22,217 nucleotides of DNA from a virus (UHGV-0138564); one strand, 5' to 3'. Shown: positions 3,407 through 4,290, numbered from the stretch's first letter. The notes: generated by a model from the letters alone, not told the origin. Made by a program: numbers and translations.

Positions 3407-3445
3407 TTGCGTATTATGCAAGTGTTTTTGTTGCGAGATATGCAA
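3407..3445. promoter_or_regulatory. Candidate OL operators: two 15-bp sites TTGCGtattaTGCAA (3407-3421) and TTGCGagataTGCAA (3431-3445)
   Basis: Two copies of the motif TTGCG-N5-TGCAA, which recurs as TTGCG-N5-AGCAA in the cI/cro intergenic region; placed where PL/OL is expected for the leftward early operon. Confidence 0.45.
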
Positions 3446-3454
3446 TTTAAAGGG

Positions 3455-3480
3455 TAATGAAAAGCCACCTTTGGGTGGCT
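3455..3480 (-). terminator. Hairpin downstream of cI (AGCCACC-tttg-GGTGGCT), candidate leftward terminator
   Basis: Perfect 7-bp stem 3463-3469 / 3474-3480 with 4-nt loop, about 20 nt past the cI stop; followed on the minus strand by TTTCATT. Confidence 0.45.
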
Positions 3481-3500
3481 AATTGATGAGGAGGTAAGGG

Positions 3501-4193
3501 TTAATTGTGTCGCTTAAGGGTTTGTGACTGGCTGATTAAGACCTTTCCAAAGACCATAAACCGGTGTTCATTTTCGCTGGTAATTCCCCATTCACGGTAA
3601 ATCTGGTTATCAGAAATCACCAGTAGTTTGTCAGGTATCATTTGCAGTCGTTTGACATAAATTTTATCATCAAAACCAAATACATAGATACCATCTCCAT
3701 CAAACTGATTGATACTGACATCAACGAAGATGAGATCTCCTGGCTCAATGGTTGGACACATACTGTCCCCACGAACGTTGATAACTTTAATGTGATTGGC
3801 TGGCCGTCCGCCAAACATCGATACAGCATTATCAGTTCTGTATTCAATGGCATGAATCACATCAATGACATCACCGCCCTGGATAAGGCCATTTCCCGCA
3901 CTGGCACTGACATCCAGCATTTCAATACGGAATACATCCTTCACCTGCGCAACATCCTCACCAATACTGTTTTTACATACAGTATTACTTTTGACGTCTG
4001 AGGTAAAGAGATCAGCAATATCAACACCTAAGCTCCTGGCAATATTACTCAGGGCTTGTTCAGTGAATTGTTTCTGCTTACCTGTTTCCAGGCGTGAGAT
4101 ATTCGCCGCATCCACTCCTATTGCTTCAGCGAGATCGGCGATTTTCATGTTCTTCGCCTGGCGAAGTTGTCTGACTCGGTTTCCTATGTTCAT
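3501..4193 (-). CDS. cI: CI-type prophage repressor (HTH_XRE N-terminal domain plus S24 LexA-like autopeptidase domain), 230 aa
   Basis: N-terminal HTH (IADLAEAIGVDAANISRLETGK); C-terminal S24 signature around GDSM (VRGDSMCPTIEPGDLIFVD) with downstream Lys (KRLQ); divergent from the cro-like gene. Confidence 0.85.
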   Translation of the reverse strand: MNIGNRVRQLRQAKNMKIADLAEAIGVDAANISRLETGKQKQFTEQALSNIARSLGVDIADLFTSDVKSNTVCKNSIGEDVAQVKDVFRIEMLDVSASAGNGLIQGGDVIDVIHAIEYRTDNAVSMFGGRPANHIKVINVRGDSMCPTIEPGDLIFVDVSINQFDGDGIYVFGFDDKIYVKRLQMIPDKLLVISDNQIYREWGITSENEHRFMVFGKVLISQSQTLKRHN

Positions 4194-4290
4194 GCGTTTA
4201 TTACATTTCTTTATTGCGCGTTAAGCAAATCAACTTGCGCAAAATATTTGCGTGAAATAATATGCTTATCACGCAATATGTGGAGGTAAT
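4194..4290. promoter_or_regulatory. cI/cro intergenic operator-promoter region (OR, PRM/PR)
   Basis: 97-bp divergent intergenic region containing TTGCGCGTTAAGCAA (4214-4228), the 8-bp palindrome TTGCGCAA (4235-4242) and the inverted repeat TTGCGTGA ... TCACGCAA (4248-4255 / 4269-4276); GGAGG SD at 4282-4286 before the cro ATG. Confidence 0.6.

Follow-up and report, generated by a model that had tools for sequence, protein, structure and literature searches.

The described systems closest to the locus studied here are the immunity switches of phages lambda, 434, P22 and 933W. The operator of 434 has the form ACAA-N6-TTGT (14 bp) and that of P22 is 18 bp long; both are unrelated in sequence to the sites reported below. 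For the Shiga toxin (Stx) phage 933W, Koudelka and colleagues reportedly described (J Bacteriol, 2004) a tripartite right operator (OR) and only two sites in the left operator (OL), and its repressor and operator sequences differ from those found here. In this study, we analyzed the region around cI and cro in UHGV-0138564, a stretch of viral DNA of 22,217 bp (hereafter, the window), where a 15-bp pseudo-palindrome recurs on both sides of cI. The sequence of this pseudo-palindrome differs from the operators of lambda, 434, P22 and 933W, and the comparisons described below indicate that its copies are very probably the cI/Cro operators of a lambda-type immunity switch.

Motif sites in the window

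The cI repressor gene (3501-4193, minus strand; 230 aa) and cro (4291-4551, plus strand; 86 aa) are divergent and are separated by a 97-bp gap according to the open reading frame calls. A sequence-only reading of the window had proposed that the motif TTGCG-N5-WGCAA (TTGCGNNNNNWGCAA) occurs on both sides of cI as the OL and OR arrays of a single repressor specificity. Searching both strands, we found exactly three matches, at 3407-3421 (TTGCGTATTATGCAA), 3431-3445 (TTGCGAGATATGCAA) and 4214-4228 (TTGCGCGTTAAGCAA); these sequences were located as had been quoted, as were the OR palindromes TTGCGCAA (4235-4242) and TTGCGTGA...TCACGCAA (4248-4276). The sites cluster only beside cI and cro, with none elsewhere. 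Rather than recurring at a similar frequency throughout the prophage, the motif was present three times against 0.15 expected, the latter being the mean of 100 dinucleotide-preserving shuffles, none of which reached three (0/100).

When one mismatch was allowed, the regulatory region gained only the site at 4262-4276 (minus strand, TTGCGTGATAAGCAT), and the three further matches scattered over the window were at chance level. The looser core TTGC-N7-GCAA returned the same three sites and one unrelated match at 17323, with 0.9 expected. The pentamer TTGCG alone was not enriched across the window (59 copies vs 67 expected), and five of these 59 copies fell inside 4214-4276. The octamer TTGCGCAA was found once in 22 kb, with one copy expected by chance; its significance derives from its invariance across genera and not from its count.

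Comparison with related loci

We scanned one genome per species, which returned 24 cI-related loci, 22 of them usable, from other Enterobacterales (Shigella, Citrobacter, Kluyvera, Klebsiella, Pantoea, Proteus, Serratia, Rosenbergiella and others) with cI proteins 39-97% identical to that of the window. Exact TTGC-N7-GCAA sites numbered 48 in 6.2 kb of cI-flanking zones vs 4 in the 112.8 kb outside them, an enrichment of approximately 218-fold with a Poisson probability of ~1e-93, a value that is inflated by the relatedness of the loci. In these genera the motif preceded the cI ATG at fixed offsets, 21 bp and 69 bp. The former position, the OR3 equivalent, was occupied in essentially all loci, every one of which scored >5 bits; the latter, the OR1 equivalent, was occupied in most loci, and all loci scored >5 bits there. 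The OL zone contained 2-3 copies, 22-24 bp apart and 50-100 bp past the cI stop codon. A weight matrix trained on the other genera only ranked the four sites of the window 1-4 of ~22,200 positions. The fifth match (10984-10998, 14.2 bits) was rejected as an operator; it falls within a DUF6731 gene, and chance alone could give such a score in 22 kb. That gene (10163-11095, minus strand) encodes 310 aa, is AT-rich, runs opposite to the surrounding genes and resembles a moron.

These loci also modified the motif itself. The three exact sites stood as proposed, but position 11 of the family is Y (C 68%, T 26%) and A is rare there; the W of the sequence-only reading is an artefact of generalizing from three sites. 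As read from the compared loci, the family consensus of the operators is TTGCR-N5-YGCAA. In an ungapped cross-genus stack of 18 unique loci, information content peaked at ATTACA (4200-4205), TTGC(G) (4214-4218), GCAAA (4225-4229), TTGCGCAA (4235-4242), TAATATGC (4258-4265) and CGCAA (4272-4276), and fell to ~0.5 bits at 4243-4257. The recognition helix N[IV]SR[LV]ETGKQK was common to all 22 motif-bearing loci, and an Acinetobacter homologue had a different helix and a different upstream repeat, without the motif. Two isolated exact TTGC-N7-GCAA sites were observed outside the OL and OR zones, on the cro side and 0.9-1.7 kb upstream of cI, in a Pseudescherichia locus (L009:1574-1588) and a Citrobacter locus (L006:797-811); these may be additional targets of the repressor or chance occurrences.

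Across six close relatives, 13 columns of the four strong sites varied; all of them were at positions 5-10, with 0 at positions 1-4 or 11-15. OL1 varied in these relatives at positions 6-10 only, and in the alignments with SfII and mEp460 the substitutions within sites were confined to the N5 centre.

The comparison with phage cdtI showed how the sites are linked to their genes. The two sequences share their flanks, with 98.6% identity as far as 3365 and 86.8% identity from 4516 onward. The cI/cro module that cdtI carries in between is unrelated; its palindromes are different and it lacks TTGC-N7-GCAA. These bounds delimit an immunity module at 3366-4515 that contains pL/OL, the cI terminator, cI, OR and cro. 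Because cdtI keeps a related cII without the motif, the sites travel with cI and cro and not with the flanking genes or cII. The earlier suggestion that the sites define an immunity group is well borne out by this heteroimmune phage, in which they are exchanged jointly with cI and cro.

At 91-98% identity, the cI-cro region was found in mEp460, SfII, Stx2a_1447, Stx2a_WGPS2, phiSTEC1575-Stx2k and 1720a-02, and cI homologues 68-84% identical were found in Salmonella ST64B (83.5%), Citrobacter phiNP and Klebsiella phages. The module 3366-4515 was present in 1040/5426 complete Escherichia coli genomes (~19%). Some of these genomes had two or three copies, and 2 of the 1090 places were on plasmids; multiple copies in one chromosome would be homo-immune prophages or remnants.

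Proposed left operator and predicted pL

The OL of this prophage consists of two sites. OL1 (3407-3421) has the top matrix score of the window (21.1 bits), and OL2 (3431-3445; 17.4 bits) has its centre 24 bp from that of OL1; both are exact motif matches. The outer half of OL1 coincides with the predicted -35 element TTGCAT (3421 to 3416, minus strand) of the leftward early promoter pL, which is separated by a 17-bp spacer from the predicted -10 element TATCTT (3398 to 3393, minus strand). In the other-genus relatives, a TAnnnT hexamer was likewise found 8 nt from the outermost OL site, and pL would start at ~3385. OL1 lies over this predicted promoter and OL2 upstream of it.

The number and spacing of OL sites differ between phages: three sites 22-23 bp apart were present in Pantoea alvi (L015:3241-3300), two 24 bp apart in the window and two 22 bp apart in SfII, and the OL region was rearranged or missing in the Pseudescherichia locus L009 and in locus L010. 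In the leader (3030-3390), no N-like gene was evident. Farther along, a match to the beginning of 'sRNA-17', a published 193-nt RNA of E. coli K1 RS218 (PMC7719688, supplementary Table_7), lies at 2937-3003. A hairpin with a 10-bp stem lies at 2941-2980, ~400 nt downstream of the predicted pL, and is followed on the minus strand by UCUUUUU; this terminator-like structure has a fold z of -3.8.

Proposed right operator and predicted pRM and pR

The OR3-equivalent operator TTGCGCGTTAAGCAA (4214-4228; 17.4 bits) is an exact motif match and spans -21 to -35 of pRM, the predicted cI promoter, whose predicted -35 element TTGCTT (4228 to 4223, minus strand) is the right half of the site. The predicted -10 element TGTAAT (4205 to 4200, minus strand) matches the -10 consensus at 5/6 positions and is 17 bp from TTGCTT; as ATTACA on the other strand (4200-4205), it is conserved across genera, with 2.0 bits of information at 4200-4202 and 4205. 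This spacing would make the A of the cI ATG (4193) the +1 position, and we therefore infer a leaderless cI mRNA from pRM. The OL1/pL and OR3/pRM pairs share one geometry: in each, the operator spans -21 to -35.

On the plus strand, the predicted -35 element of pR, TTGCGC (4235-4240), lies within TTGCGCAA, and a 17-bp spacer separates it from the predicted -10 element TAATAT (4258-4263). Across loci this -10 reads TAATAT, TAACAT or TATTAT, with an information content of 1.3-2.0 bits. The pR start would be at ~4271, and GGAGG (4282-4286) and the cro ATG (4291) follow downstream. The OR1-equivalent operator ATGCTTATCACGCAA (4262-4276; 17.0 bits) is a one-mismatch match and spans ~-9 to +6 of the predicted pR.

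Between these two operators, a weak OR2 candidate, TTGCGCAAAATATTT (4235-4249), holds the invariant TTGCGCAA, which has an information content of ~2.0 bits over the 18 unique loci and is conserved far beyond the needs of a -35 hexamer. The 15-mer frame 4235-4249 had a median of 8.7 bits, and 74% of related loci scored >5 bits; in the window it reached 1.3 bits and its right half was unconstrained. Because of these frame scores, we read 4235-4249 as a weak OR2 of which only the left half is good here. The middle palindrome of the sequence-only reading is accordingly retained as an invariant element, but only as a half-site, probably a weak OR2 that also serves as the pR -35. Similarly, the right 15-mer (4262-4276) of its 29-bp palindrome was conserved, but the left arm (4248-4255) was clade-specific: the extra TTGCG at 4248-4252 was kept only in the E. 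coli/Shigella/Citrobacter clade.

Several other candidates in this interval were rejected. As a middle operator, the frame 4228-4242 had a median of only 1.3 bits across loci. The site 4238-4252 (CGCAAAATATTTGCG) would lie 24 bp from each neighbour, but its half-sites are misdirected and its right arm was not conserved. The 29-bp palindrome 4248-4276 was not accepted as a single unit, its left arm being unconstrained beyond the closest clade. The only promoter that the scan called in OR, the leftward TCCACA-16-TATTAT (4284 to 4257), placed its -35 on the cro ribosome-binding site and was not conserved.

Two weaker elements flank the interval. The site-like 15-mer ATGCGTTTATTACAT (4192-4206), which overlies the cI start codon and the -10/+1 of pRM and scored 10.4 bits in the window, is doubtful; its frame scored >5 bits in 42% of loci with a median of -4.8, and its conservation may arise only because the start codon and the -10 hexamer lie there. 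Within cro codons 8-12, the degenerate palindrome GTGCGTAAGGCGCAC (4312-4326) scored 2.8 bits. Other genera have a good operator, TTGCGTAAATCGCAA or similar, at the equivalent place, and Proteus has TTGCGAATAAAGCAA, which encodes different amino acids; this suggests that 4312-4326 may be the decayed remnant of a DNA-level fourth operator downstream of pR.

The cI and Cro proteins and neighboring genes

The cI repressor contains an N-terminal HTH_3 domain (Pfam, 1.1e-10) and a C-terminal Peptidase_S24 domain (6.4e-19), and Cro also contains an HTH_3 domain (2.1e-9). At the sequence level, Ala99-Gly100, Ser144 and Lys181 of cI were invariant in 15 homologues, as was the recognition helix ANISR.ETGKQK in the helix-3 region. 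In this region, PATLSRIE of Cro aligned with AANISRLE of cI (MAFFT), with the common pattern A-x-x-S-R-x-E; a BLASTP comparison of the cI N-terminal domain with Cro returned no alignment. The PDB match of the cI N-terminus was weak (434-derived domain 1sq8, E = 2e-4).

A terminator scan identified an intrinsic-terminator-like hairpin (3463-3480, minus strand) that would end the cI transcript between cI and OL, and a hairpin with a T-run was found at the matching place in relatives. No Rfam family matched within 2300-4700. Downstream of cro lies a CII family gene (CP76/YmfL, 4544-5101). Farther into the early right operon, 6746-7072 (plus strand) encodes a 108-aa protein made up solely of a LexA DNA-binding domain (PF01726, 2.9e-19), without a peptidase domain; the gene adjoins those for RusA (7069-7458) and a KilA-N protein (7445-8275), and its product is possibly an SOS-box binder or modulator.

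Proposed mechanism and alternative explanations

In the mechanism that we propose, a cI dimer would bind each 15-mer with one helix-turn-helix per TTGCR half-site. Dimers on OL1 and OL2 would shut the leftward early promoter pL, and cI on OR1, over the pR -10 and start, and on the weak OR2, at the pR -35, would shut pR and cro. Since OR3 covers the -35 and spacer of pRM, its occupancy by cI at high level, or by Cro, would turn off cI synthesis. Cro has a similar helix 3 within its HTH_3 domain and presumably reads the same operators as cI. Upon SOS induction, activated RecA would trigger self-cleavage of cI at Ala99-Gly100 and thereby inactivate it. The sites themselves, their clustering, placement and conservation, and their linkage to the module are observed; the binder, the transcription starts and the order of occupancy are inferred parts of this scheme, as would be any cooperativity between dimers or activation of pRM.

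The reading of the sites as the OL and OR arrays of a single specificity gains support from their placement, their overlap with the predicted promoters, the cross-genus matrix, the recognition helix, the fixed half-sites of close relatives and the cdtI comparison. The locus has the divergent repressor and cro genes of a lambdoid switch, repeated sites in the gap between them, the same site at the leftward promoter, an exchangeable module, co-occurrence of site and helix, and the self-cleavage residues. As far as sequence can tell, the features of membership are all present, with only a tripartite cooperative OR in doubt.

Several observations weigh against this interpretation. In particular, the middle OR site is a half-site only (1.3 bits), so that a tripartite cooperative OR like that of lambda is uncertain, and the OR centres are spaced 21 and 27 bp apart, vs 22-24 bp in OL, with no obvious fit to pairwise cooperativity. 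OR3 and OR1 match the consensus equally well, and the lambda order of occupancy is therefore not predicted. The consensus promoter scan missed pL, pRM and pR, a consequence of -35 hexamers that agree with TTGACA at just 3/6 positions, and the proposed start sites are drawn from spacing and conservation. Additionally, the cross-genus counts are not phylogenetically independent, although the site centres differ freely between loci, and a full-text literature search found no binding data for this cI repressor.

We considered whether the sites could be explained without a repressor. Chance clustering of a short AT/GC-mixed palindrome could appeal to the small number of sites in one window, but it is refuted by the shuffles (0/100 reaching three), the ~218-fold cross-locus enrichment and the matrix ranks 1-4, and deserves practically no weight. 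The chance is very slim, too, that TTGCxx represents mere -35-like hexamers with incidental palindromes and that no repressor reads the 15-bp sites. OL2 and OR1 lie away from -35 positions yet are equally conserved, both halves are kept at the exact N5 spacing across genera while the centre drifts, and the motif is lost along with cI and cro in cdtI; a -35 element requires only TTGnnn and no GCAA partner 7 bp off. These points outweigh the coincidence of three half-sites with the predicted -35 elements TTGCAT (pL), TTGCTT (pRM) and TTGCGC (pR) and the lack of window-wide enrichment of TTGCG alone, both of which such hexamers would accommodate. It is also very unlikely that another regulator is the binder, whether the CII-like CP76/YmfL protein (4544-5101), the LexA-domain protein (6746-7072) or a host factor. 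Motif presence follows the cI recognition helix across genera, and cdtI retains a cII-like gene, 86.8% identical from 4516 on, but has no motif. Sites of the lambda CII type, which flank a -35 and depend on the cII gene, have TTGC in direct repeat (TTGC-N6-TTGC), and the repeats found here are inverted. The window sites also do not fit the SOS box, CTGT-N8-ACAG, to which their sequence bears no relation. On the other side, the window does encode a CII-family protein and a LexA_DNA_bind-only protein, and TTGC also occurs in lambda CII sites (PMC2629481).

A further alternative accepts the sites as genuine cI/Cro operators and changes the wiring. It is possible, although doubtful, that a strong OR3 and OR1 with isolated half-sites serve mainly for tight negative autoregulation of cI, unlike in lambda; just as tentative is the corollary that pRM is not activated, that OR1 and OR2 do not cooperate, and that related phages place an additional control site inside cro. 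The weak or half-site OR2, an OR3 as near to consensus as OR1, the common repressive geometry of OL1/pL and OR3/pRM, the clade-specific additional TTGCG at 4248 and the retention of the fourth site within cro in several genera despite amino-acid changes would all fit such an arrangement. However, affinity is not predictable from consensus match, and in 434 and P22 the non-contacted central operator bases tune affinity; moreover, the OR2 frame exceeds 5 bits in 74% of relatives, so that a tripartite OR is the family norm. We consider it rather improbable that the switch follows a regulatory logic distinct from that of lambda. This notion is pointed to by the half-site OR2/pR -35 TTGCGCAA and the consensus-strength operator on a leaderless cI promoter, as well as by the extra half-site at 4248 in the E. 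coli clade and the fourth, in-cro operator in many related phages. If true, it would mean, for example, purely negative cI autoregulation combined with a downstream roadblock or looping site.

Significance and comparison with known systems

A set of cI/Cro operators of lambda type remains our preferred reading. This arrangement is ordinary lambda style and unsurprising to a specialist; the immunity type is very common, and its operators were not found described. The deposited phage records that carry the module annotate genes only, plus a terminator in SfII, and no operators; a paper comparing SfIV and SfII gives no operators, and a full-text literature search found no description of the motif or of the mEp460, SfII or ST64B operators. 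The specificity of the LLS/mEp460_4F5 repressor was stated in 2025 to 'remain unknown' (PMC12315714). We set this statement aside as evidence on the present cI, since that repressor is an unrelated protein of 208 aa with no meaningful similarity to it.

The consensus TTGCR-N5-YGCAA and the promoter map provide a description of the immunity type found in about one-fifth of complete E. coli genomes, and of medically relevant phages that include O157:H7 Stx2a-converting phages, the Shigella serotype-converting SfII and Salmonella ST64B. The consensus permits sequence-based prediction of homo- and hetero-immunity between prophages, the design of repressor/operator parts, and targeted study of the determinants of induction threshold in these Stx phages.

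The locus shares several features with lambda: cI and cro are divergent, one pseudo-palindromic site is repeated in the gap and at the leftward early promoter, and the sites overlap pR, pRM and pL, with a predicted leaderless cI message from pRM. As in lambda, cI has an S24 self-cleavage domain (Ala-Gly, Ser, Lys), and the module is exchangeable between similar phages. We also found clear differences. The site here is the 15-bp TTGCR-N5-YGCAA, whereas that of lambda is of the 17-bp TATCACCGC type; cI and Cro here both belong to HTH_3, a fold that lambda Cro does not have. OL contains two sites instead of three, OR2 is essentially a half-site, and the OR sites are spaced by 21 and 27 bp, not by 23-24 bp. 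Additionally, OL lies only ~800 bp from OR, and the stretch from pL to the first gene of the left operon showed no N gene.

The locus resembles 434 and P22 in that the repressor and Cro both have the HTH_3 fold with common helix-3 residues, and in its short palindromic operators, which have conserved outer bases and a variable centre. In contrast, the cI protein shows only ~43% identity to P22-like cI/C2 repressors. Such similarity to P22 was reported, for another repressor, to lie mainly in the C-terminal domain (PMC12315714).

With 933W, the locus shares the two OL sites predicted here, and its immunity type also occurs in the Stx phages Stx2a_1447, Stx2a_WGPS2 and phiSTEC1575-Stx2k. Among sequenced phages, mEp460, SfII, ST64B, Citrobacter phiNP and several Klebsiella phages carry this module, with cI, cro and the sites in common, and the nucleotide identity is 91-98% for mEp460 and SfII.

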